Assembly (NCBI GenBank): GCA_001897305.1
Contig: MKSO01000001.1
Location: forward strand, 540,001-572,000
DNA: 32,000 nucleotides
Direction of reading: 5' to 3'
Source: Candidatus Saccharimonadota bacterium
GTDB taxonomy: Bacteria; Patescibacteriota; Saccharimonadia; Saccharimonadales; Saccharimonadaceae
Both the position numbers and the translations under genes were made by a program. Below are positions 5,999-31,059 of the stretch, in pieces (the stretch's first letter is position 1; each line of letters starts with the position of its first letter). The notes below the pieces were generated by a model. That model worked only from the letters and a program-made list of their open reading frames with translations. It was not told the origin of the DNA and did not search any database.

Positions 5999-7303
5999 TT
6001 AGTTGTGTGGCGTAACAGTACCACCATTGAGTGTAACGAGTCGCTCGATGGTCTTTTCAGTTACGTAGTGGTTAGCGATATCGCGACGTACTTCTGGGGT
6101 TTCAAACTGCTTCAAAACCTCTGGGTTATTAGCGTACTGGCGCTTGTGTACCTCAACATGCTCGTCGATTTCTTCATCTGTTGCAGTAATGGCTTCAGCT
6201 TGGCTTAGCTCATTTAGTACAAGACTAGCCTTAACGCGCTTTTCAGCGGCTGGCTTGACTTCTTTTTCGCGCCATTCGTCTTCGTCTTTAAACTTGTTCG
6301 CGTCTAGGTAAGTTTGGAGGTCTACACCACGGTACATCAAGTTTTGTGCAAAGTCTTGCTCAATGGAGCGCATTTGGTCAGCAATAAGTAGCTCAGGTGC
6401 TGTTACTTCGCTCTTTTCAATAAGAGCGTCGAGCAGTGCATCCTTAAGTTTGTCGTTAGCCTCGCGCTGCTTTTGGGTGGTAATTTCAGCCTTAATATCA
6501 TTCTTAAGGTCTGCTAAGGTTTCGAAGTCACCAGCTTTTTTAGCAAGCTCGTCATCAACTTTAGGCAAGCTCACTTCAGTCACCTTTTTCAAAGTAGTCG
6601 TAAATACTACCGATTGGCCAGCCAAGTCTTTAGCATGGTAATCTTCAGGGAATGTCAACTCAAGATCGAACGTTTCACCAGCTTTGTGCCCAATAATACC
6701 TTCTTCAAAACCTGGAATGAATTGGTTAGACCCAAGCTTTAGTGTGTAGTCGGTGCCGGCACCACCATCAAAGGCAACGCCGTCTTTCTTGCCAACAAAA
6801 TCAATGACTGTTTCGTCGCCATCTTTTGCAGCCCGTTCTACTTCTTTCTTTTCAGAAAAGCCAGCTCGCATACGTTCAATAACGTCGTTAACATCAGCGT
6901 CGGTTACTTTCACCGCTTCGGCTTTCTTATCGAGCTTTTTGTAATCACCAAGTTTTACCGGTGGGAGTACTTCAACTTCAGCCGTAAATTCTAGGAGGTC
7001 ACCAGGTACATATTTCTTAATATCTACCATCGGACGGTCGAGAGCTTGAATTTTTTCAGCCAGAAAAGCTTCAGCAACAGCTTTGCTAATTGCATCGTCA
7101 AGGAGTTGCTCCTGCAAGGCTTGTGGGTCAACATGCTTAGCAGCTACAGAGGCAGGCACTTTGCCTTTACGAAAGCCAGGAACCTTTACAGTCTTACTGA
7201 GTTTTACGGTCGCAACTTTTTCTGCGTCAGCTAAGGCTTCGGCGTCAAGAATAATCGTTAATTGTACTTTAGTGTCGGATAGGTTTTTTACAGTTGTCTT
7301 CAT
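5999..7303 (-). CDS. tig: Trigger factor (ribosome-associated PPIase chaperone)
   Basis: The track start at 7339 is a TTG. The ATG at 7303 gives MKTTVKNLSDTKVQLTI, a typical trigger-factor N-terminus. There is a central FKBP-type block VIDFVGKKDGVAFDGGAGTDYTLKLGSNQFIPGFEEGIIGHKAGE. The start is ambiguous between 7303 and 7339. Confidence 0.9.
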   Translation of the reverse strand: MKTTVKNLSDTKVQLTIILDAEALADAEKVATVKLSKTVKVPGFRKGKVPASVAAKHVDPQALQEQLLDDAISKAVAEAFLAEKIQALDRPMVDIKKYVPGDLLEFTAEVEVLPPVKLGDYKKLDKKAEAVKVTDADVNDVIERMRAGFSEKKEVERAAKDGDETVIDFVGKKDGVAFDGGAGTDYTLKLGSNQFIPGFEEGIIGHKAGETFDLELTFPEDYHAKDLAGQSVVFTTTLKKVTEVSLPKVDDELAKKAGDFETLADLKNDIKAEITTQKQREANDKLKDALLDALIEKSEVTAPELLIADQMRSIEQDFAQNLMYRGVDLQTYLDANKFKDEDEWREKEVKPAAEKRVKASLVLNELSQAEAITATDEEIDEHVEVHKRQYANNPEVLKQFETPEVRRDIANHYVTEKTIERLVTLNGGTVTPHN

Positions 7304-7354
7304 TAGACTTAGTATAACAGAGGTCAAAAGGTGGGGCAAGTTTTGCCAAATGAA

Positions 7355-8650
7355 CTACGTGCTAAATTTCTCAGCTATTTGCTCAACGGTTAGCTTTTCT
7401 TCTTGCTCGTTTTCAACCCTTTTTAGCGAGTACTCACCCGTTGCTACGTCTTGTGGACCCACAAACAAAAGATAGTCGATGCCCTTTTTTACCGCCGTCT
7501 TGATTTGCTTATCGAGCTTGCGTCCAGTAATGTCTACTTCGACGTTTATTCCACTGCTGCGTAATTCAGCAGCAATACCGCGAGCATCATCAAGCGCTTC
7601 GTCGGACACAACAACCACATATACATCAGTCTTTGAAGTATTCTGGGGTAGCAAACCGTGGACTTCAAGGAAATTCTCTATCATGGTGTTACCAGGCGCC
7701 ATACCTACTGCACTGATTGGCTCGGCACCGAACAGACCTACAAGACCGTCATAGCGACCACCCCCAAAGAGTGAACGGTTATTATCTGGGTGCGTATCAA
7801 AAGCTTCAAAAACAGTACCGGTGTAGTAATCAAGGCCGCGCATAAGAGTGGCGTCGAAAATCGCGCCATCGACACCTGCTTTATTCAGCCCATCAAAAAG
7901 GGTTTTAATTTCTTCAATAGCCGAGACGTGCTGAAGAGCCTCGGGTAGCTGTTCGATACTTTGAGCGGCAATAATTTGGTTTATCTTTTCTAGATCACCA
8001 GCCTGCTCGCTGCCGAGAATCTCAAGGGCCTGCTCTTCAAAAGCTTGCTGGTCAATTTTGTTACGACGGTCAAATAGTTTGATCATTTGATGGGCCGCAA
8101 CCGCATCCAGACCAAGATACTCAGCCATCATGTAATGGACGAATTTGCGGTTATTAATACGTAAAACGTAATCACCCTTTTTAGCGCCGAACTCTTTTAG
8201 AATAGCGTCGGCTATGCTGATAATTTCAACGTCGGCTGCAAGCGTGTCAACGCCAAACATATCGACGTTTAGTTGCCAAAACTCGCGCTCACGACCCCTT
8301 TGCGGACGTTCGTAGCGCATAAAGTTGGCAATAGAATAAAGACGAGCTGGGTAGGCTAATTCCTGACGGCGAGCTGCCACCATCCGGCTAATGGTTGGGG
8401 TCATCTCGGGGCGGATAGCCACTGTGCGACCACCACGGTCGGTAAAGGTGTAGGTTTGCTCATTCACCAACTCTTGGCCACTTTTAGCGGCATAAATTTC
8501 GATATTTTCCAGAATAGGCGCGCCGTATTCTTCGTAGCCAAAACGTTCTACGACACGTTTCCAGGTATCAAAAATATAGTTTTGGAGCCGTTTTTGCTCT
8601 GGATAATAATCTCGAGTTCCTTTATAGGGCTGCGGGGAGAGTGAAGTCAT
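7355..8650 (-). CDS. hisS: Histidine--tRNA ligase (class II)
   Basis: 431 aa, ATG at 8650. Motifs: N-terminal KGTRDYYP, RYERPQRGREREFWQLNVDMFG, GGGRYDGLV, and a C-terminal anticodon-binding-like domain. Confidence 0.93.
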   Translation of the reverse strand: MTSLSPQPYKGTRDYYPEQKRLQNYIFDTWKRVVERFGYEEYGAPILENIEIYAAKSGQELVNEQTYTFTDRGGRTVAIRPEMTPTISRMVAARRQELAYPARLYSIANFMRYERPQRGREREFWQLNVDMFGVDTLAADVEIISIADAILKEFGAKKGDYVLRINNRKFVHYMMAEYLGLDAVAAHQMIKLFDRRNKIDQQAFEEQALEILGSEQAGDLEKINQIIAAQSIEQLPEALQHVSAIEEIKTLFDGLNKAGVDGAIFDATLMRGLDYYTGTVFEAFDTHPDNNRSLFGGGRYDGLVGLFGAEPISAVGMAPGNTMIENFLEVHGLLPQNTSKTDVYVVVVSDEALDDARGIAAELRSSGINVEVDITGRKLDKQIKTAVKKGIDYLLFVGPQDVATGEYSLKRVENEQEEKLTVEQIAEKFST

Positions 8651-9237
8651 GAAGCTAGTATATCATCTTGGCGCTCTCTGGTGCGAATAGTTCGCGGGCG
8701 AAGAGCATCTGGGGTATTTACATTAACAAGCGCAAGCTCGTCAAATACGTCTCGCGGATGCGATTGGAGATGATCGCGTAAATCATCCAGAGCATCGACA
8801 CGAGGTGGCTTAAAATCTGCGCTCCCTACCCCGGGCAGTGCGTAATATACCGACAACGTTAACGCGTCGGGTCCGTTATCATTAAAAACTGGTGGAATAA
8901 TAATTCTACTAGCCGCCTGATGACCTAGGCTAACACCAAGCCGAATGAAACGATCCGCCACTTCGAAACGAGCATCGGCTCCAAAACTAGCCCTATTATA
9001 ATCGTCAATTTTACGACGATAAGAACCAAATGCCAGTTCTTTATCACTTTTACCGTCAATATAATCGTCCGGGTTGTGAACATATGCTTGCTCAGAGAAT
9101 ACATATAAAAAACCCGGCAAACTACGCCGGATTGCAGGTGCTGATAAATTAGCCAAAAGCCCATCAGTTGTTTCATCACGTACAGTTAAACGTACACGAT
9201 ATTTTTCGCCTGGTGGTGTATTCTCTGGCGTCTTCAT
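8647..9237 (-). CDS. Hypothetical protein (196 aa)
   Basis: ATG start at 9237. The stop overlaps the hisS ATG by 4 nt (ATGA), which suggests co-translation with hisS. I recognise no motif. Confidence 0.6.
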   Translation of the reverse strand: MKTPENTPPGEKYRVRLTVRDETTDGLLANLSAPAIRRSLPGFLYVFSEQAYVHNPDDYIDGKSDKELAFGSYRRKIDDYNRASFGADARFEVADRFIRLGVSLGHQAASRIIIPPVFNDNGPDALTLSVYYALPGVGSADFKPPRVDALDDLRDHLQSHPRDVFDELALVNVNTPDALRPRTIRTRERQDDILAS

Positions 9238-9263
9238 GCCGTCATCATGACATAAGGGGTCAA

Positions 9264-9788
9264 TTACTGCAAGCGGTTTTGTTGTATCCAGGTATACATT
9301 GCTATACCCGAGGCCACGCCAACATTGACTGAACGAGTAGAGCCGAACTGTTCAATCATTACTACTTGCTTCGCCCCATGTAACAGCTCATCTGATAAAC
9401 CCGGACCTTCGGCACCAAATACAAGTACCGAATTAACCGGTAGTCGTACTCTACCAAGAGGCTGAGCACCCTCCACGATATCTATAGCTATTACCTCTTT
9501 ACCTCTTTCAGCCATCGCTACAAAGAACTCAGCTGCAGTTTGATAGTAATAGATATGTACATATGCATCCGTTTTCATTGCTCCACGCTTATTCCATTGC
9601 TTACGTCCAATAACATGTACAGCCTTAACGTTAAAAGCGTTGGCGTTACGTACAATCGTACCCATATTAAAGTCACGTTCAAGATTTTCTACGGCAATTT
9701 CAAGATCACTGCGAGACTCATCGAGGTCTTTCACTATATCTTCAACTGATTGATCCCTATATTTATCTACTACATTTCTAGTATCCAT
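9264..9788 (-). CDS. SpoU/TrmH-family RNA 2'-O-methyltransferase
   Basis: C-terminal SpoU-type motifs VLVFGAEGPGLS and IEQFGSTRSVNVGVASGIAMY. The track start at 9821 is TTG; the first ATG is at 9788 (MDTRNVV...). Confidence 0.8.
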   Translation of the reverse strand: MDTRNVVDKYRDQSVEDIVKDLDESRSDLEIAVENLERDFNMGTIVRNANAFNVKAVHVIGRKQWNKRGAMKTDAYVHIYYYQTAAEFFVAMAERGKEVIAIDIVEGAQPLGRVRLPVNSVLVFGAEGPGLSDELLHGAKQVVMIEQFGSTRSVNVGVASGIAMYTWIQQNRLQ

Positions 9789-20614: not shown

Positions 20615-20739
20615 ACCGGGCAACTCGGAAACCGATGTTCGTGTTCGAGTTCGACGCAGAATTGTTCAAATTGAGCGTCAAGACCCCGGCATTGGAGCCA
20701 TTGTTCCAATTGCCGCCGCGGATGAACGCGCGAGAAGCT
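20615..20739 (-). repeat. DGR template repeat (TR)
   Basis: It is 125 nt, with 114/125 identity to 22392-22516. Ten of the 11 mismatches fall where this copy has T on the + strand (A on the minus strand). In the target reading frame it is rich in AAY codons. Confidence 0.9.
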
Positions 20740-20792: not shown

Positions 20793-21956
20793 ATGACGAT
20801 GTTAGATGCCACCGCTTTTGCTAAGATTGCTTCACTAGAGGCCTTAGCAAAAGCCCATAAAAAGGCGTTGATAGGAAAGCGCAACAGCCACTCGGCAACG
20901 GCCACCAACTTCCGCTTCATGAGTGATCTGCTTCAAATCCAGAGAGAATTGGTGTCCGGCTCGTACCGCCCGATGGATTATCGTCGCCGGATCATCCGTG
21001 AACCCAAAGTCCGGATGATTGAGGCTCCGGCCTTTCGGGACCGGATTGTTCACCACGCCATGCACGGCATTCTTAGCCCATTCTACGAACGTTCCTTTAT
21101 TCGTGATTCTTATGCATGTCGGCCAGATAAGGGAATCCACCGAGCAATGGCGAGGGTGCAACATTTCCTCAGAAGCGAACCGAACTTGTACGTCTGTAAA
21201 ATTGATATCTCCAAATACTACCCGTCGGTGAATCACGCTAAACTCCGTGAGCTGTTGCGTCGCAAGATAGATGATCCGAGGTTGCTCCGACTTTTGGATG
21301 TCATTATTGACAGTAGTGACAGCGGCGATGAACACGACTACCTATTCCCAACTGACTCCAACTACCATACAAAAGGTCGGCGCGGTATTCCTATCGGGAA
21401 CCTGACCTCCCAGCTCTTTGCCAATATTTATCTTCATGAGGCGGATATGTTTGCGAAGCAGTCGCTTCACGCCAAGTTCTACATCCGCTACATGGACGAC
21501 ATCCTGCTCTTTCATCAAGACAAAGCCGTTTTGCAAGAGTGGCAACGAAAGATCACGGCGTTTCTATACGATGAACTGTACTTGACGGTGAATCCGAGAA
21601 AAGTCCGCATCTATCCAAGTCGTCTGGGAGTCGACTTTGTCGGTTATATCATGTATCCGTATGGTAAACGGGTACGGGCATCGTCGCTCCGAAGATTCCG
21701 ACGGAAGTTCCACCGCAACCTCAAAGCCTACCATAAAGGCGCGGTCAGTGAACAACGGCTGGATGATATGGTGAACGCGTGGTCGGCTCATGTGAGGCAT
21801 GGGAGTGGTGAACCGCTCATTAAGCAAATCACCGAGGAGCTGGATTCCCACAAGTTCATTGCATTTGTCAGGAAGAAGCACCGCCAGAATTTACGGAGGC
21901 TCCGAAAGCCGACCCAATTGTCACTGCTCGACTTCGACGGCTCGGATAGTCGGTAG
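20793..21956 (+). CDS. DGR reverse transcriptase
   Basis: 387 aa. RT motifs include RMIEAP.FRDRIVHHA and YIRYMDDILLF (YxDD box). It also has the DGR-RT signature [I/L]GxxxSQ as IGNLTSQ. The TR is adjacent. Confidence 0.93.
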   Translation: MTMLDATAFAKIASLEALAKAHKKALIGKRNSHSATATNFRFMSDLLQIQRELVSGSYRPMDYRRRIIREPKVRMIEAPAFRDRIVHHAMHGILSPFYERSFIRDSYACRPDKGIHRAMARVQHFLRSEPNLYVCKIDISKYYPSVNHAKLRELLRRKIDDPRLLRLLDVIIDSSDSGDEHDYLFPTDSNYHTKGRRGIPIGNLTSQLFANIYLHEADMFAKQSLHAKFYIRYMDDILLFHQDKAVLQEWQRKITAFLYDELYLTVNPRKVRIYPSRLGVDFVGYIMYPYGKRVRASSLRRFRRKFHRNLKAYHKGAVSEQRLDDMVNAWSAHVRHGSGEPLIKQITEELDSHKFIAFVRKKHRQNLRRLRKPTQLSLLDFDGSDSR

Positions 21957-22307
21957 CCGTTTGTCGCGGGCTGTCTTGATCCACCCACCGGTCATCTTCC
22001 CTACTTCATCGATCCGCTTGGTGATGTGTCCGAGGCTTTTGGCACTAAGGAACTTCATCTCGAACCCAATCCGAAGTAGTCCTCGAAGTACTTCCAACTC
22101 CGTGTTCAGGTCATCCAGCTTCAAGAGTGTCTTCTCTGGATTTTTCAGATTGTTGGCTTGAATGATGAGCCGCAGACACGCGAGGGCGCTGGTTTCAATC
22201 TGTTGTCCCAGCACGAAGCGTTGTTTCTTCGGAAAGGTATTAACCTTATCGAAGATCCATTGCTGCACTTCGAGCATACGGGTGTAGATGATAAAATCCG
22301 GTTTCAT
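21921..22307 (-). CDS. Accessory variability determinant (Avd-like four-helix-bundle protein)
   Basis: 128 aa with a helical pattern: FPKKQRFVLGQQIETSALACLRLIIQAN...LDDLNTELEVLRGLLRIGFEMKFLS...GKMTGGW. This resembles the Avd / 23S-rRNA-IVS protein family. It lies directly downstream of the VR gene, and its 3' end overlaps the RT 3' end convergently by 36 nt. Confidence 0.8.
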   Translation of the reverse strand: MKPDFIIYTRMLEVQQWIFDKVNTFPKKQRFVLGQQIETSALACLRLIIQANNLKNPEKTLLKLDDLNTELEVLRGLLRIGFEMKFLSAKSLGHITKRIDEVGKMTGGWIKTARDKRLPTIRAVEVEQ

Positions 22308-22389: not shown

Positions 22390-23397
22390 TCACCGGGCAA
22401 CTCGGAAACCGATGTGCGCGTTCGAGTACGACGCAGAATTGCTCAAATAGAGCGCCAAGACCCCGGCATTGGAGCCATAGTTCCAAGGGCCGCCGCGGCG
22501 GAACGCGCGAGAAGCTGAGTCCGCATAGTTCGCGTAAATCTGCCCAACACCCTTACCAGCTCCCCAAGTAATACCAGAAAGACTGACGTTATTGACCGGG
22601 TTTGTCCAACCGTTTAAGGTTGCTGGCTTACTGACGTTTGCTAAGTTGCCGAGACTCAGTGAACCAAGCGTGTAGTCGCGCCAGTTGAATGCTGAGTCGC
22701 CAGAGACACCGACGTTGCTCATAGTGAGTGTTGGTGTACCAATGGCTTGCTGTGTCCATTCCCACACATTACCAGAGAAGTCCCAAATTGCGTCGCCAGA
22801 TGAAAGGTACAGTACGCGAGAGCTGTTATTGCCGGAGTTGGTTCCGATACCACCGGTCATGCCATTCAGGTTGTCGGTATCATCGTCCGAAGCCGCCAAC
22901 GCGCTTCCTGGGTTGTTGTTTACGTGACCCTGATAGATGATTCCGGAGTTCACGCTGCCACCAGACCAGTTCTGTTTCATCGAGAGTACATCAGCCGCAA
23001 TCGTCATCCATTCCGCCTCGGTCAGCAGGTGCCCGCCAGCATTGGTAGACTGCGTAATCGCATCCGTTTGTGTGATCGAGACCCACGGCGCACCGGAAGC
23101 CTGTGAGGTAGCCACGCCACTGACGTTCTTGGCTTCGTACTTCATGACACAGAACGGCGAGGTACCGAGTGTGGAATTGCCGTAGACAAATGAGTAACCA
23201 GCGGGACAATCGTCGATGCCGTTCTGGGCGCGGTAGACAGCAGCCTTTGTTTGGAGTTGCTTGATATCTGCGGTCAGGGCAGCCTTGTTGGCGTTCTGAG
23301 TGATGCCGGTGTACGCCACGATGGTAATCGCCGCAAGAATACCAATCACCACGATGACGATCAGGAGTTCGACGATAGTAAAACCGCGACGATTCAT
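22390..23397 (-). CDS. DGR target protein: type IV prepilin-like N-terminus plus FGE-sulfatase/C-type-lectin-like domain ending in the VR
   Basis: 335 aa. The N-terminus MNRRG|FTIVELLIVIVVIGILAAITIVAY is a class III signal (Gly-1, Phe+1, Glu+5). FGE/SUMF-type blocks are present: HLLTEAEWMTIA, GNVWEWTQ, and RGGPWNYG...GFRVAR at the C-terminus. Confidence 0.9.
   Translation of the reverse strand: MNRRGFTIVELLIVIVVIGILAAITIVAYTGITQNANKAALTADIKQLQTKAAVYRAQNGIDDCPAGYSFVYGNSTLGTSPFCVMKYEAKNVSGVATSQASGAPWVSITQTDAITQSTNAGGHLLTEAEWMTIAADVLSMKQNWSGGSVNSGIIYQGHVNNNPGSALAASDDDTDNLNGMTGGIGTNSGNNSSRVLYLSSGDAIWDFSGNVWEWTQQAIGTPTLTMSNVGVSGDSAFNWRDYTLGSLSLGNLANVSKPATLNGWTNPVNNVSLSGITWGAGKGVGQIYANYADSASRAFRRGGPWNYGSNAGVLALYLSNSASYSNAHIGFRVAR
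22392..22516 (-). repeat. DGR variable repeat (VR), last ~41 codons of the target gene
   Basis: It is the counterpart of the TR and ends 2 nt before the TGA stop. Codon changes TR to VR: ATC>CGC, AAT>CCT, AAT>TAT, ACG>GCG, AAT>TAT, AAC>AGC, AAC>TAC, ACG>GCG, AAC>CAC. Confidence 0.9.
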
Positions 23398-23434
23398 CTG
23401 GTTAGAACCTCGCGGTAGATTTCTTATTCTGGCT

Positions 23435-23458
23435 AGAGAGAGAGAGAGAGAGAGAGAG
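23435..23458. repeat. (AG)12 dinucleotide microsatellite ((CT)12 on the gene strand)
   Basis: Twelve perfect AG units counted directly. The tract lies 37 nt upstream of the target-gene ATG (23397), within its promoter or 5' leader. Confidence 0.95.
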
Positions 23459-23671: not shown

Positions 23672-24853
23672 TTATGGCTTCTGGCGTTTCATCTGTTTGA
23701 CCAGCATTTGATGTATGGCATACGTGAGGGCATTGTCCTCGTATACGAACCCCTCGCGGTTGAACGGGCTTTCTGGTGGCTCCCCTGCCTCCACATGCTT
23801 TTCCCAAACAAGCTCGTCCGTATAGTCAGTAATGCCTAACGCCTGTTTGATAATCTTCTGCATCCCAATCCCAAAAACGAGCAGGGCAATATCAAGGTGT
23901 CTTTGCTTATCGAGGAAGTTGTAGTCATCGGACTTAATCTTGTCACCGTGAATAATTGCGCTTCTCAGTTCATAAAACCTATCAGCCCACATCACCTTGA
24001 TACTTTCATGTTCCCAAACAGCTGGTGCTCTACCGCGAGAACTTTTATAACGACGCTTCGGATCACTCGGCAGAACAAACATGCTATTCATTGTGTTCTT
24101 CAAGTGTTCCCTTTGTCGAGAGTCCGGAATATCAAACAGGGTTTCAAGTGCGCTAGACATCGACAAGACTCGTTGAGATTCTGGAATCTTATCATCATTA
24201 TAATAAGCCTGAACGACAACCTCGATAGCCTGTATGATGCGTCGATACAGTTTCTTGTTCTTCCTATAAAGGCGGGCTAATAGTCCCAAGGTATCATCGT
24301 CAATATTAAATGACATCGGTGACATCACCTGCTGTGGTCGCCGGAAGATCATATCACCCAGCTTGTAGCCCATATCATTCTTCTGGATGATGGACCCGCC
24401 TCGGATACCGAAGTGATCGTCTTGCGTACTGAAGCCCTGCCACACCATATCGAAGTTCTCCGACACAACCATTCGGTGACCTCGGTTTACGTCCGTCAGG
24501 ATTTTTAGGTTCCATACCAACGCACCAGCGAACAGGCGGAGCCTTGCCTCTCGTGCCAGTTTCCGTTCACTGTCGGTATATTCTCGAAAATCTATATCAC
24601 CAACACTGATAATGCCCATATCTGAAATTGCCTCATCGGCTAGTGTACCCATACCCTGAAAGACGTAGTGAACGTTGCTCCCCATGATTGTATCCAGCCT
24701 CGCAAGTACATCCGGATCGGTGATGTAGGCATTCTTCATCAAACCGTAGTTCCAAATCTTAACAGTAAGGTCTGGGAAGTTGACCTCATTCACATCTTTC
24801 ATATTTAGGTAGGGGATGTAGTTGACCTGCATTTCTAGAATCCTAACTGCCAT
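23672..24853 (-). CDS. Hypothetical protein B of an unknown two-gene cassette; C-terminal HEPN-like domain
   Basis: The track start at 24874 is GTG. ATGs at 24853 and 24832 are alternatives; 24832 lies 2 nt after the stop of the upstream ORF. The C-terminal helical region contains SSALETLF...ADRFYELRSAIIHGDK (R-x4-H at 23948-23965). No Walker motif. Confidence 0.75.
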   Translation of the reverse strand: MAVRILEMQVNYIPYLNMKDVNEVNFPDLTVKIWNYGLMKNAYITDPDVLARLDTIMGSNVHYVFQGMGTLADEAISDMGIISVGDIDFREYTDSERKLAREARLRLFAGALVWNLKILTDVNRGHRMVVSENFDMVWQGFSTQDDHFGIRGGSIIQKNDMGYKLGDMIFRRPQQVMSPMSFNIDDDTLGLLARLYRKNKKLYRRIIQAIEVVVQAYYNDDKIPESQRVLSMSSALETLFDIPDSRQREHLKNTMNSMFVLPSDPKRRYKSSRGRAPAVWEHESIKVMWADRFYELRSAIIHGDKIKSDDYNFLDKQRHLDIALLVFGIGMQKIIKQALGITDYTDELVWEKHVEAGEPPESPFNREGFVYEDNALTYAIHQMLVKQMKRQKP

Positions 24854-26370
24854 CGTATCGTCAGCCTGTTCCACTCCGAGAACGTGTCACTTGTTGGGTG
24901 ATTATCTTTTGGAGGGGGTGGCATGTTCGTCAAGTTAGCCGCCTGGACATGGCTCAGTTTCTCAACCGGTGTCGCTCGCATAAGATCATTGACTAGTATC
25001 ACTACCTCCTCGAATAGCTTGTCTACCAGCGTCGCTGGATTGACTTCGTTGAGATTAGCACCGAGGGGCTTCACTCCCCACGCGTCGCGTCCGCCGAGTG
25101 CGTCCATCGAAAGCAAGATATCCGCTTCGTCGTCTTTCGGCAGCCCGAGGATGGTTTCTGTCTTGTTGCCGCTCTGTTTGGTGATGCCTTTGATTGCTTC
25201 ACCGTGGATAGAATTTCGTAGCTTGGTCAGAACGGTAAGCCGATGAGCATTATCGCTCCCCTTTGCCACGGCCGCCGCAAGATTGGCATCCAGCTTCGCA
25301 ACGTCCTTTATCCAGTCTCGTTGCCATGCCGCATTATGTGCTTTGGCCGGATTCATACCGAGGACATAATGTGCCACCCTCGCACTAGCATCAATCGCTC
25401 CCATCAAGGTCATCAAGGTATTGTCGAACGTGCCGAGTACGTCATCATTGATGTCGTTGTTGGTCTTGGAGTTGATGCCGATATGAATCTGGTCCCGTAG
25501 TTCGAGCGATCGTTGCATCCGGCTCATCACCGCACTAGCCAAGTACATCAGCTTATCGTCTTTCGTTCCGGACGAGTGGTGGACGCAAGCCGAAAACCAA
25601 CGCCACGTTTCGGGTACTAACTCGCGCATCCCAACCCAATAGAACATTCCCCTATTTAAATGGTAGCGGAATTTCTTTTGACCAGTCGGAATAATGAACT
25701 CACGTTGCGCCCGCAAATATAAAGAAACAGCCGAGATCGCATCGTCTGGTTGGCAAATAGTTATTGCCCGACCAGCTGCAATACGCCGTGACGGTGCGTA
25801 GAGATAAGGGCGGGTGGTGATATAGATATCAGCATCAATACAGTCGTCGGCGACTTGGACGGCAATCGCATCGGCTTGTCTTTTATCGGCCGCGTCATCA
25901 CCAGTGTAAGTCTTATCAGTAGCGTCGTCCCTTGCTGCAGTGTACAGGTCACCCATAACGCCAGAGTAAGATGCGTTCTTGTCGTCGAGTGCATAGGTCA
26001 CCGGACATAAACCGTTTGACTTTTGTGGGTATAGGACTGCATATCCCTCGTAGGTTGGTTCGATGTTCGGGTTGCCTGTTTCGATTGGCTCGACCGATGC
26101 CGGTGGAGTTTCGGTGTAGCGGTATAGTTCAATCAAGTCGTTATAGAGGAGGCTTCTCAGCAACAGCCCTTTCGTCGGAGTGCCTCGCATGTCCGAAGTG
26201 GTCGATTCATCGAACAGCTCACTATCGATCATGACGCGAAGTTTGCGGAATGGAGCGCGGCGGTCGAACACACTGTCTGTTCTATCTGGCGATTCTGGCC
26301 ATACAGCATTACGCCACATGGCGTTCTTGGCCGTCTTGTTAAACTGCGTCACTCCCATAATATCTTCCAT
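24835..26370 (-). CDS. Hypothetical protein A of an unknown two-gene cassette; HEPN-like R-x3-H motifs
   Basis: 511 aa, ATG at 26370. The C-terminal half is helical and carries LELRDQIHIG and TKLRNSIHGEA (25204-25218). No NTPase or other motif that I recognise. Confidence 0.8.
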   Translation of the reverse strand: MEDIMGVTQFNKTAKNAMWRNAVWPESPDRTDSVFDRRAPFRKLRVMIDSELFDESTTSDMRGTPTKGLLLRSLLYNDLIELYRYTETPPASVEPIETGNPNIEPTYEGYAVLYPQKSNGLCPVTYALDDKNASYSGVMGDLYTAARDDATDKTYTGDDAADKRQADAIAVQVADDCIDADIYITTRPYLYAPSRRIAAGRAITICQPDDAISAVSLYLRAQREFIIPTGQKKFRYHLNRGMFYWVGMRELVPETWRWFSACVHHSSGTKDDKLMYLASAVMSRMQRSLELRDQIHIGINSKTNNDINDDVLGTFDNTLMTLMGAIDASARVAHYVLGMNPAKAHNAAWQRDWIKDVAKLDANLAAAVAKGSDNAHRLTVLTKLRNSIHGEAIKGITKQSGNKTETILGLPKDDEADILLSMDALGGRDAWGVKPLGANLNEVNPATLVDKLFEEVVILVNDLMRATPVEKLSHVQAANLTNMPPPPKDNHPTSDTFSEWNRLTIRWQLGF

Positions 26371-26554
26371 TATATCTCTTTAGGAAGAGTTCTTCCTCCT
26401 CTGTCTTCTTCATGATACGGGTAGACCTGAATCTATCAAGGTCGTTCGTCCACTGGTAAACGTCAGGGGCGCTCCATCTTGACAGCTTCAGCCTTACCCT
26501 GTGCCTCGTTAGACAGAGAGGCAGAAAGCCCTCTCAAGAAGCAAAGGAGGGTCT

Positions 26555-29010: not shown

Positions 29011-29190
29011 TATGTCACGACCAAAAGGCAGTAAGAATGTTAATCCACCAGCCGTACCAGACACGGTGAATTTCACGACCGAAGAACGCCTGACTTTTAT
29101 TGCTACCCTCATCGTCGAACGCATTATTGAAGATATAAAAAACGAACAACCACTCTTAAAAAAGATAGGACAAGGTGATGCAACCAACTA
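29011..29190 (+). CDS. Hypothetical 59-aa protein immediately upstream of the recombinase
   Basis: ATG at 29011 is preceded by GGAGGG. The N-terminus is basic (SRPKGSKN). Its 3' end overlaps the recombinase start. Confidence 0.5.
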
Positions 29191-30908
29191 ACGGACAGAC
29201 GCTCCGTACACTACTCGCCGTCCGTGTTTCAACGGTCGGACAAGGTATTGATGGCGACTCGCCGGAAGCTCAGATCGAGCAAGGCGAACGCTACGCGCCG
29301 CTTCACAATATGCGGATCGTGATGACACTCCAATATCTTGAGTCTGCATCCAAAGAACAGCAACCGATGCAGGAGGTTATTAACTACTGCAAGCGTCATA
29401 AGGGCGAGATCGATGTCGTCCTTATTAAATCAATTGACCGCTTCACCCGTGCCGGTTCGACCGTCTACGACCAGCTCAAAGCCCAGCTTGAACCGCTCGG
29501 CGTGACGCTTGTCGATATGTACGGTATTATTAGCACTCAAAAAGTGAACACGCTTGAACACCTCGGCCAAGAATATAAATGGAGTGTCTACTCCCCTACT
29601 CGTAAAACAGAGCTTCTAGAGGCAGAACGTGCCAAAGATGAGGTGCGTGATATCTTGAGCCGTATGATCGGCTCAGAAATCCGTTATACGCAACTCGGCT
29701 ATTGGTCGCGTGGCGCTCGGTTCGGCTATAAGACCGAGAAGATAGAAACCGTCAACGGTAAACGAGCAATTCTTGTACCAGACGGGGATAAGGCCGACAT
29801 TATCCGTATGATGTTTGAAGAACGTGCGGCGGCCGTCTTAAATGACCACGAGATTGCCGAAAAGATGAATGATATGGGATTTGAAACCCCTATTAAAATC
29901 GTACGTGACAAACGGGATAGAACTCGGATCGTCAGCAGGACTGGCGGGAAGAAGATAACCGCCAAGCTACTACGAACATATGTCAAACAAACAATCTATG
30001 CCGGTGTAAATACTGAGAAATGGACAGGCGGCGTGCCAGTGAAGTGTAAGTTCGATGGCCTCGTTTCGATGGAATTATTCAACAAAGCCAATCGAGGCAA
30101 AGTAACGCTCCGTAACAATCCTGACGATATGGATCACCCAATCGTTGAATACGCTAAGAAAGATGAGCGGTTTGTTAAGAAGAATCACCAGAACCCCGAC
30201 TACCCATACAAAAAAGTAGTCACCTGTCCACATTGTCGCAGACCGCTTCTTGGAAGTGCCTCACGGGGCAGACTAGGTAAATACTACGCGGCTTATCACT
30301 GTAGCAATCACGGGCACCACTTCCGCGTACGCAAGGATGAGTTTGAGGGTACAATCGATACGTTCATAAAAACGGTCACAATGCGTCCTGAGCGCGTTGA
30401 GGAGCTGATGCAAGCCGTTATGACCGTCTATGAGCAACGGCAAGGTCAGAAAGTGAAAGCCGAGGAACTAGTTGATAAACGACGCTCCGAGCTTGAAGCG
30501 GAAATCAAAGTCATCGTAGACAAGATGAAGCTGATCAGCTCGGAAACCGCCATTAAATACCTAGAGGAGGACTTATTAAAGCTAGAACGAGAGATTAGCA
30601 ATCTAGACAACCAGAAACAGCAAGAAGCAGCCAAAGATACGGTCGATGTTCCAACGATGTTGACATACGTCAAATACTTTATGGAACACATCAAAGAGCT
30701 ACTCGTTGACCACTGTAATCCAATCAAAAAAGCGCAGTATTTCGGCGTATTATTCGATGAGGTTGCAACTTACGAGGAAATAAAAGCTGGCACCGCTGAA
30801 ATAGAAAAAATCCCAGGGGTGAACGAGCTATTTAAGCTTGCAAACTCCAAGGAAGTTTCATTGGTGCGGATAAGAGGACTTGAACCTCCACGCCCTTGCG
30901 GGCACTAG
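29178..30908 (+). CDS. Large serine recombinase (integrase of the element)
   Basis: Resolvase-type N-terminus LLAVRVSTVGQ (putative Ser nucleophile) and VLIKSIDRFTRAG. It has a recombinase domain, a Cys-rich zinc ribbon (CPHCRRPLLGS...YYAAYHCSNHGH) and a long coiled coil. The track start at 29175 is GTG; the ATG is at 29178. Confidence 0.9.
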   Translation: MQPTNGQTLRTLLAVRVSTVGQGIDGDSPEAQIEQGERYAPLHNMRIVMTLQYLESASKEQQPMQEVINYCKRHKGEIDVVLIKSIDRFTRAGSTVYDQLKAQLEPLGVTLVDMYGIISTQKVNTLEHLGQEYKWSVYSPTRKTELLEAERAKDEVRDILSRMIGSEIRYTQLGYWSRGARFGYKTEKIETVNGKRAILVPDGDKADIIRMMFEERAAAVLNDHEIAEKMNDMGFETPIKIVRDKRDRTRIVSRTGGKKITAKLLRTYVKQTIYAGVNTEKWTGGVPVKCKFDGLVSMELFNKANRGKVTLRNNPDDMDHPIVEYAKKDERFVKKNHQNPDYPYKKVVTCPHCRRPLLGSASRGRLGKYYAAYHCSNHGHHFRVRKDEFEGTIDTFIKTVTMRPERVEELMQAVMTVYEQRQGQKVKAEELVDKRRSELEAEIKVIVDKMKLISSETAIKYLEEDLLKLEREISNLDNQKQQEAAKDTVDVPTMLTYVKYFMEHIKELLVDHCNPIKKAQYFGVLFDEVATYEEIKAGTAEIEKIPGVNELFKLANSKEVSLVRIRGLEPPRPCGH

Positions 30909-30948
30909 CACCTGAAGCTAGCGCGTCTACCAATTCCGCCACATCCGC
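30862..30948 (-). tRNA. tRNA-Leu (anticodon CAG), class II with long variable arm, CCA encoded
   Basis: Hand-folded cloverleaf. Acceptor GCGGATG/TATCCGC; anticodon stem CTAGC/GCTAG with loop TTCAGGT; variable arm GCCC-GCAA-GGGC; T-loop GGTTCAAGTCC; 3' ACCA. Confidence 0.9.
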
Positions 30949-31029: not shown

Positions 31030-31042
31030 GATTGTTACGTAA

Positions 31043-31059
31043 TCCGCCACATCCGCATA
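31043..31059 (-). pseudogene. Duplicated 5' fragment of tRNA-Leu (acceptor and D-stem start)
   Basis: The 17-mer tccgccacatccgcata is identical to 30935-30951, which covers the genuine tRNA 5' end. Confidence 0.7.

Follow-up and report, generated by a model that had tools for sequence, protein, structure and literature searches.

A candidate single-polypeptide HEPN ribonuclease and its neighbour in the cargo region of a saccharibacterial conjugative element

In ApeA and DARNA, a single protein unites a HEPN domain with a sensor domain; cues of infection activate the protein, which then cleaves tRNAs at the anticodon. ApeA, a tRNA anticodon nuclease, is switched on by deoxydinucleotides, which are bound in a pocket away from the active site, and DARNA is activated by single-stranded DNA bound by the single-stranded DNA-binding protein (SSB). 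HEPN domains are defined by an Rx4-6H motif in which the arginine is followed by a polar residue (N, D or H), placed where helix 3 ends or the next loop starts, and by an acidic residue conserved on helix 2; some of the domains are non-catalytic, and these typically lose Rx4-6H (Anantharaman et al. 2013, PMC3710099). Here we describe two adjacent genes, A and B, of a Candidatus Saccharimonadota bacterium. They lie on an integrative conjugative element (ICE) within a stretch of 32,000 nucleotides (positions 540,001 to 572,000 of contig MKSO01000001.1), which we call the window. An earlier, sequence-only reading had proposed that A and B form a paired HEPN-like cassette.

On balance, we favour the reading that A and B are independent conflict genes of different families in the cargo of the ICE, B encoding a HEPN ribonuclease and A a separate protein. 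To judge from its conserved motif and weak profile matches, B is probably a single-polypeptide HEPN ribonuclease of a previously undescribed, distantly Apea-like family. Of the earlier proposal, the HEPN candidacy of B has stood and the pairing has not. The two genes of a dedicated system should co-occur across genomes, a check that the sequence-only reading had itself set, and A and B do not. Our survey took in 24 loci of B homologues and 21 of A homologues besides the window, and all translated open reading frames (ORFs) of these loci were searched with both profiles. A was found at none of the 24 B loci, about 14 of which have at least 1.5 kb of upstream sequence, and B at none of the 21 A loci; among the surveyed loci only the window holds both genes. 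The pair is absent even at the closest relatives (71% identical for B and 59–62% for A). The 71%-identical B homologue (locus L026) stands without A, as does one of 50% identity (L024) that directly follows VirD4 on a syntenic ICE beside SpoU-hisS-tig. An A homologue of 60% identity (L045) was found on a syntenic ICE that has the same block of target, bAvd, reverse transcriptase (RT) and HxlR genes belonging to or beside a diversity-generating retroelement (DGR), and there the slot of B is filled by a DUF2690 gene and two small ORFs. At another A locus (L044), DUF3768 is followed by a gene for a 239-aa protein and then by A, with a divergent gene downstream. We conclude that A and B, although neighbours, do not form a dedicated two-gene system.

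The two proteins are also distinct from each other by profile comparison. When A was compared with B by hhalign, over the whole length and at the level of domains, only LRNxIIHG of B and LRNS-IHG of A could be aligned, with a gap, and the comparison of A with the HEPN profile of B gave 12 columns at a probability of 4%. Since hhalign revealed no homology beyond this motif, we rejected a view of the two as paralogous HEPN proteins.

Both ORFs are real genes, as each has full-length homologues (26–72% identity), and the tight coupling described in the sequence-only reading is borne out by the ORF list and the junction sequence. The TAG stop of A (24837-24835) is followed by AA and then by the ATG of B at 24832 (...CAG TTA GGA TTC TAG AA ATG...), which leaves a gap of 2 nt, and a Shine-Dalgarno-like AGGA is located 9 nt upstream of this ATG. 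An in-frame GTG at 24874 would provide an alternative start for B (23672-24874, 400 aa). The 386-aa form is the likely one, because every B homologue in the alignment starts at the MQVxYxPYL that matches ATG 24832; the residue numbers given here for B (R304, H309, E244 and so on) follow the 400-aa numbering. A promoter-like site was placed 42 nt upstream of the ATG of A by a scan that relies on consensus matches only and found 6 sites in the region against 4.4 expected. The same scan found no such site between A and B, so that the two genes are likely co-transcribed.

The 2-nt gap, the AGGA sequence and the lack of a promoter-like site between the genes would all agree with a genuine, lineage-specific two-component module recently assembled on this ICE, in which A is a sensor, regulator or antitoxin of B or the two proteins form a heteromer joining two HEPN-like sites, and in both proteins a helix does end in an LRN..HG-type motif. 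We regard such a module as rather unlikely, given that the pair occurs at none of the 45 other loci, including those of the closest relatives of each gene and the syntenic ICEs, and that A homologues are packed equally tightly with unrelated genes. At locus L027, a Pycsar-type nucleotide cyclase (PDB 7r65, E 5e-11) is found 3 nt downstream of an A homologue, and as this cyclase is part of another, known defence system, a short gap behind A is no evidence of partnership. B would, moreover, need no A for its neutralisation, because the B family is almost always found without it.

Tight spacing could also be explained if A were a conserved hub, that is, a sensor or adaptor with interchangeable downstream modules, of which B is the one present here. 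A co-directional gene begins within about 10 nt of the A stop at 5 to 7 of the 21 A loci, and the products (B here, a 237-aa protein at L006 and L009, a 328-aa protein at L007 and the Pycsar-type cyclase at L027) are mutually unrelated; all-against-all BLAST and Pfam comparison of the genes downstream of A detected no shared relation among them and none with B. However, at half or more of the A loci the following gene is distant or lies on the opposite strand, both the Pycsar cyclase and the B family work, or at any rate are found, in the absence of A, and the packing of independent systems in defence islands would give the same pattern. A role of A as a hub therefore appears quite improbable to us, and we return to B as an effector in its own right.

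B is a member of a sizeable, unnamed family of two-domain proteins. Only 15 relatives were retrieved by a word-indexed search, whereas an exhaustive profile search with HMMER over 1.84 billion representatives (50% clustering) returned 724 relatives at E <= 1e-3, of which 368 reach E <= 1e-10. Full-length proteins of 340–390 aa make up most of the family; its members come from several phyla, and those in Saccharimonadales, Dormibacteraeota and Gemmatimonadales are labelled 'hypothetical'. The confident AlphaFold2 model of B (predicted local distance difference test score, pLDDT, 84.7; predicted template modelling score, pTM, 0.84) divides the protein into the two domains listed in Table 1.

A bare R-x3/4-H arises by chance in proteins of this size, and conservation is thus the proper test of such a motif. 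The four motifs quoted in the sequence-only reading, two in each protein, are present at the expected codons upon translation, and the one that it called a canonical HEPN R-x4-H in B is conserved almost throughout the family. Within the pattern W..FYxLR[N/S]xxxHG, R304 and H309-G310 are invariant in 15 of 15 close relatives, and residue 305 is N in 14 of 15 sequences and S in the window protein. Conservation of the motif stays at 90% or above across 52 diverse relatives with identities as low as about 20%, and the canonical form [FY]xLR[N/S]xxxHG was found in 112 of 114 full-length relatives, the residue after the arginine being N in 93, S in 12, D in 3 and H in 4. In the AlphaFold2 model the motif closes the C-terminal end of helix 292–308. 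Upstream, on helix 232–246, A242 and L246 are invariant and E244 is at least 90% conserved in 15 B sequences, and the E and L are at least 90% conserved in the 52 relatives; E244 is a candidate for the acidic HEPN residue that normally resides on helix 2. B has, in the terms of the HEPN definition, Rx4-6H with a polar residue after the arginine, located at the end of what we number as helix 3, and an acidic residue upstream.

Profile matches among the relatives point in the same direction. HEPN_Apea is the only recurrent Pfam family among the 52 (11 matches, best E 4.6e-4), its matches cover the RNxIIH motif in the two members inspected, and one further relative of the 52 matches HEPN_RiboL-PSP. 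The C-terminal domain of B is therefore a good candidate for a HEPN RNase domain, a prediction of fold and activity that draws on the motif, its position and the weak profile evidence.

In the mechanism that we propose, A and B would be packed side by side in the variable cargo region of the ICE, each acting on its own. B may dimerise via its HEPN domains, with the two R-x4-H motifs forming one composite, metal-independent RNase site, and the novel α/β N-terminal domain may silence the enzyme until a cue of infection or invasion is sensed. Once activated, B would cleave RNA of the cell, with tRNA anticodon loops or mRNA as the most likely targets, and would thereby bring about cell arrest and abortive infection.

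A belongs to an orphan family and may be the more novel of the two proteins. The family comprises about 100 clusters (90% identity) from at least six phyla; a profile re-search of a 5.8-billion-protein set returned the same 99 proteins, none of them Pfam-annotated, and a Pfam scan of 32 members gave nothing relevant. Members were found in Saccharibacteria, Ktedonobacterales, an alphaproteobacterial metagenome-assembled genome, Streptomyces, Kitasatospora, Frankia, Solirubrobacterales, Gaiellales and Dormibacteraeota, and more distant homologues are present on Rhodococcus and Nocardia plasmids. The nearest named relatives of both the A and the B protein are from Saccharibacteria or Saccharimonadales. 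A was modeled by AlphaFold2 at very high confidence, with a pLDDT of 89.8 and a pTM of 0.91 as an N-terminal α/β part (residues ~1–240) and a C-terminal helical part (~241–511), and Foldseek searches of this model against PDB and BFVD returned no match at E <= 0.001. Two elements of the N-terminal half are a 'VxVD' β-strand at residues 44–49 (D49) and an 'ADxFITxRPYL' strand-turn at residues 181–187 (D181, T185, R187); they presumably recall PIN-like or Rossmann-like nuclease folds, and fold and profile searches give no support to that likeness.

In the alignment of 32 A sequences 15 columns are invariant, and the majority of these are polar positions of the helical C-terminal half. The invariant polar residues include R284, R292, D316, D327, R385, N386 and H389; A330 is invariant as well, and D293, R331 and H334 are at least 90% conserved. 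Of the two R-x3-H motifs that the sequence-only reading had singled out in A, KLRNSIHG has proved to be conserved, its R-N-x2-H being present with a 3-residue spacer in 88 of 90 members and with a 4-residue spacer in none. LELRDQIHIG was ruled out as an R-x3-H site, because its histidine is not conserved: residue 296 is H in about 20 of the 32 sequences and Y, L, N, M or R in the others, next to the invariant R292.

In several respects this site resembles the HEPN superfamily (PMC3710099). A has an invariant R, an N at the following position and an H-G at the end of a helix, LRNSIHG closing helix 373–386 in the AlphaFold2 model. As in Csx1 (PMC3710099), a β-hairpin comes next, and D327-x3-R331, which is similar to the [DE]x3[KR] element of HEPN domains (PMC3710099), is on the long preceding helix 305–336. 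Unlike HEPN proteins, A has a spacer of three residues (R385-N-S-I-H389), never four, which leaves it outside the family definition, and no profile or fold likeness to HEPN, including the domain of B, was detected. It is thus doubtful that A is HEPN-like. Our best guess for the C-terminal domain is a divergent HEPN-like nuclease or a ligand-binding domain, and we take A to be an independent conflict- or mobile-element-associated protein with an active-site-like cluster in this domain. A long shot would be that A represents a new family of nucleases or sensors with a compressed HEPN-like site (R-N-x2-H and D-x3-R) and a fold absent from PDB and BFVD, serving as a hub with swappable modules, and that A-B is a real, so far unseen, two-component immune or addiction module.

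The sequence-only reading had placed the genes in the cargo region of the ICE, and at other loci both families have genes of defence and of mobile elements as neighbours. One B homologue adjoins a Type ISP/MmeI-like restriction-modification (RM) enzyme and DUF5677 on a 351-kb contig, another adjoins a methyltransferase and DUF4238 between two serine recombinases, and others are also next to serine recombinases. The A homologues adjoin, at different loci, a Type I HsdR with an RE_endonuc protein, a RecQ-like helicase and an integrase; a Lit-like Peptidase_U49 with AAA_16; PIN_12; a large helicase with MTES_1575; the Pycsar genes and a DNA methylase with HNH (L027); and, on a Rhodococcus plasmid, a TIR protein and a coupling protein of a type IV secretion system (T4SS). 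The pattern is typical, in an anecdotal way, of defence islands and mobile-element cargo, and a defence or addiction role for A and B is plausible. A phage origin was rejected, since 2.9 million viral contigs gave one partial match to B and none to A.

Some details of these loci are recorded here as observations in their own right. L027 looks like a compact defence island at 6001-9479, with the A homologue (59% identity), the cyclase and, convergent to the latter, a PycTM effector gene and a gene for a 236-aa protein; the DNA methylase and HNH lie beyond, and the related element also has heavy-metal cargo and DUF3768. A DUF4238 protein is encoded just upstream of an A homologue (L045 148-1401) and of a B homologue (L025 4961-5965) and may be a further recurrent cargo or defence-island gene. 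Pentapeptide-repeat proteins are encoded near A homologues in Ktedonobacterales (L010 7656-9269) and on a Rhodococcus plasmid (L047 2865-3968 and 11978-12870), which may be a coincidence.

The position of A and B on the element raises the alternative that one or both genes serve the ICE itself, in leading-region anti-defence, establishment, exclusion or post-segregational addiction. They are placed between the Replic_Relax gene or DUF3768 and the DGR, saccharibacterial A homologues recur near DUF3768 on similar elements, one of the distant A homologues on the Rhodococcus and Nocardia plasmids adjoins a T4SS coupling protein, and B adjoins VirD4 in L024. Against such a role, A is also chromosomal, beside Type I RM and other nucleases, in phyla without this ICE, the Type ISP RM enzyme is the neighbour of B on the 351-kb contig, and a HEPN RNase with its catalytic residues intact is typically a toxin or an effector of abortive infection. 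We consider service to the ICE unlikely.

Several observations weigh against our preferred reading of A and B as independent conflict genes with B as a HEPN ribonuclease. The 2-nt spacing and the absent internal promoter-like site fit a functional couple in this lineage, and the closeness of both genes to the relaxase makes a leading-region role (anti-defence or establishment) possible. The R-x3-H of A breaks the Rx4-6H definition, and no other evidence ties A to HEPN. The sequence-only reading could place neither protein in a known family, and indeed neither the window B protein nor A has a Pfam, NCBIfam, PADLOC or PDB-sequence match at threshold. Every HEPN_Apea match among the B relatives is below the Pfam gathering score of 24.4 bits. 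In PDB, Foldseek with the B model found no HEPN structure at a meaningful score, a match to Ire1 having E 0.2 and a root-mean-square deviation (rmsd) of ~20 Å, and the B profile found nothing among PDB sequences. For the B model, as for that of A, Foldseek gave no PDB match at E <= 0.001, the top matches of both models have an rmsd of ~20 Å or more, and phmmer and hmmsearch of both proteins against PDB sequences gave chance-level matches only (P450, catenin, COMMD8). Finally, the defence context comes from about 20 loci and is anecdotal, without enrichment statistics.

It may also be asked whether the R-x-H motifs are structural or ligand-binding and neither protein is a nuclease, both being, for example, nucleotide-binding regulators. 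The missing threshold matches of fold and profile, the non-canonical spacing in A and the existence of non-catalytic HEPN domains (PMC3710099) would be in line with this. Such domains usually lose Rx4-6H, however, and B keeps the R, a polar residue after it, the H and the G in 112 of 114 relatives, so that we hold a non-catalytic role of the motifs to be very improbable.

Coordinates of the genes, domains and motifs are collected in Table 1. The window passes from housekeeping genes (rpoB, clpP, tig, hisS and a SpoU methylase) into the conjugative element, which begins with VirD4-like, CHAP, VirB4-like, PrgI-like and TrbL/pilin genes and continues with HxlR and a complete DGR. Beyond the DGR come B, A, DUF3768, a Replic_Relax protein and a serine recombinase abutting a tRNA-Leu gene. 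A and B are located as the sequence-only reading had it, with the DGR on one side and the DUF3768 gene on the other, and the conjugative element bears a T4SS. A literature search on DUF3768 returned no papers.

Table 1. Positions of A, B and the neighbouring retroelement in the window
Feature	Position	Strand	Description	Basis
Gene A	24835..26370	(-)	511 aa, ATG start	ORF and homologues
Gene B	23672..24832	(-)	386 aa from ATG 24832	ORF and homologue starts
B N-terminal domain	~24308-24832	(-)	β-rich α/β	AlphaFold2 model
B C-terminal domain	~23825-24307	(-)	HEPN-like, helical, two β-hairpin insertions	AlphaFold2 model
B helix motif	24134..24157	(-)	SSALETLF, conserved A242, E244, L246	Translation
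B catalytic-type motif	23945..23977	(-)	FYELRSAIIHG, R304-x4-H309-G310	Translation
A motif LELRDQIHIG	25477..25506	(-)	R292-D293	Translation
A motif DASARVAH	25369..25392	(-)	D327-x3-R331, H334	Translation
A motif KLRNSIHG	25201..25224	(-)	R385-N386-x2-H389-G390	Translation
Promoter-like site, sigma-70-type	26412..26439	(-)	TTGATA-16-TATCAT	Consensus scan, 10/12 matches
DGR template repeat (TR)	20615-20739		125 nt, 91% identical to VR	
DGR RT gene	20793-21956	(+)		
bAvd gene of DGR block	21921-22307	(-)		
DGR variable repeat (VR)	22392-22516		125 nt, 3' end of target gene	
DGR target gene	22390-23397	(-)	Pilin-like C-type-lectin	

The DGR target gene encodes a protein with both an N-terminal pilin-type methylation motif and an FGE-sulfatase/C-type-lectin domain, and this DGR block recurs in locus L045. 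A (CT)12 run is present at ~23433-23456, within the 275-nt spacer between the stop of B and the start of the target gene, and is possibly a slipped-strand phase-variation switch for the promoter or 5' untranslated region of the latter. A tRNA-Leu(CAG) gene at 30862-30948(-) overlaps the 3' end of the serine recombinase gene at 29175-30908(+), and 108 nt further on, at 31036-31059, 24 nt of the tRNA end are repeated as a partial copy with 88% identity. This is probably the attachment-site region of the ICE.

If B acts as predicted, Saccharibacteria and other bacteria of the candidate phyla radiation, whose immune repertoire is poorly known, would gain a candidate effector carried on conjugative elements. 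A is a good target in the search for a new activity, since its structure is predicted with confidence, no other family resembles it in structure or sequence and about ten of its polar residues are invariant, in a family spread over at least six phyla, plasmids and ICEs and found beside RM systems. The locus also calls for caution in method, as tight gene spacing in cargo regions and defence islands is no proof of a functional pair.

Among two-gene systems, the closest in outline is Dazbog, an abortive-infection system made of DzbA, which has DUF262, and DzbB. The PADLOC DzbB profile is weakly matched by 3 of the 52 B relatives (best E 3.7e-4). Unlike in Dazbog, A has neither DUF262 nor any other Pfam domain, the window B protein does not match DzbB and the A-B arrangement is not conserved; membership of this system was rejected.

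Closer parallels to B are found among the single-protein effectors. Like ApeA (PF18739), which confers abortive infection from a single gene, B is one polypeptide with a predicted C-terminal HEPN domain that has insertions, its N-terminus would be the sensor and its RNase activity would bring about growth arrest; PF18739 is, moreover, the sole Pfam family that recurs among the B relatives, on the catalytic motif itself. In contrast to ApeA, those matches are sub-threshold, the window protein has none and no PADLOC ApeA match was obtained. ApeA proteins are also longer, at least ~580 aa, and mainly helical, with an N-terminal domain, a Mid domain and a HEPN_ApeA domain, so that B, with 386 aa and a β-rich α/β N-terminus, lies outside ApeA both by profile threshold and by architecture. 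DARNA (PD-T7-3), PrrC, RloC and HepS provide the wider comparison, as Rx4H HEPN RNases fused to a sensor and activated by infection, which is what we propose for B. DARNA differs from B in having its HEPN domain at the N-terminus, followed by a helical C-terminal domain, and no search gave sequence similarity of B to DARNA or to other single-protein HEPN anticodon nucleases. By analogy, B probably works like ApeA or DARNA. What appears new in B, as far as its sequence can tell, is the sensor domain on an otherwise known type, the single-protein HEPN effector; if B is indeed an active, self-contained HEPN abortive-infection protein, it would add a new sensor-domain architecture to the class of ApeA, DARNA and PrrC.

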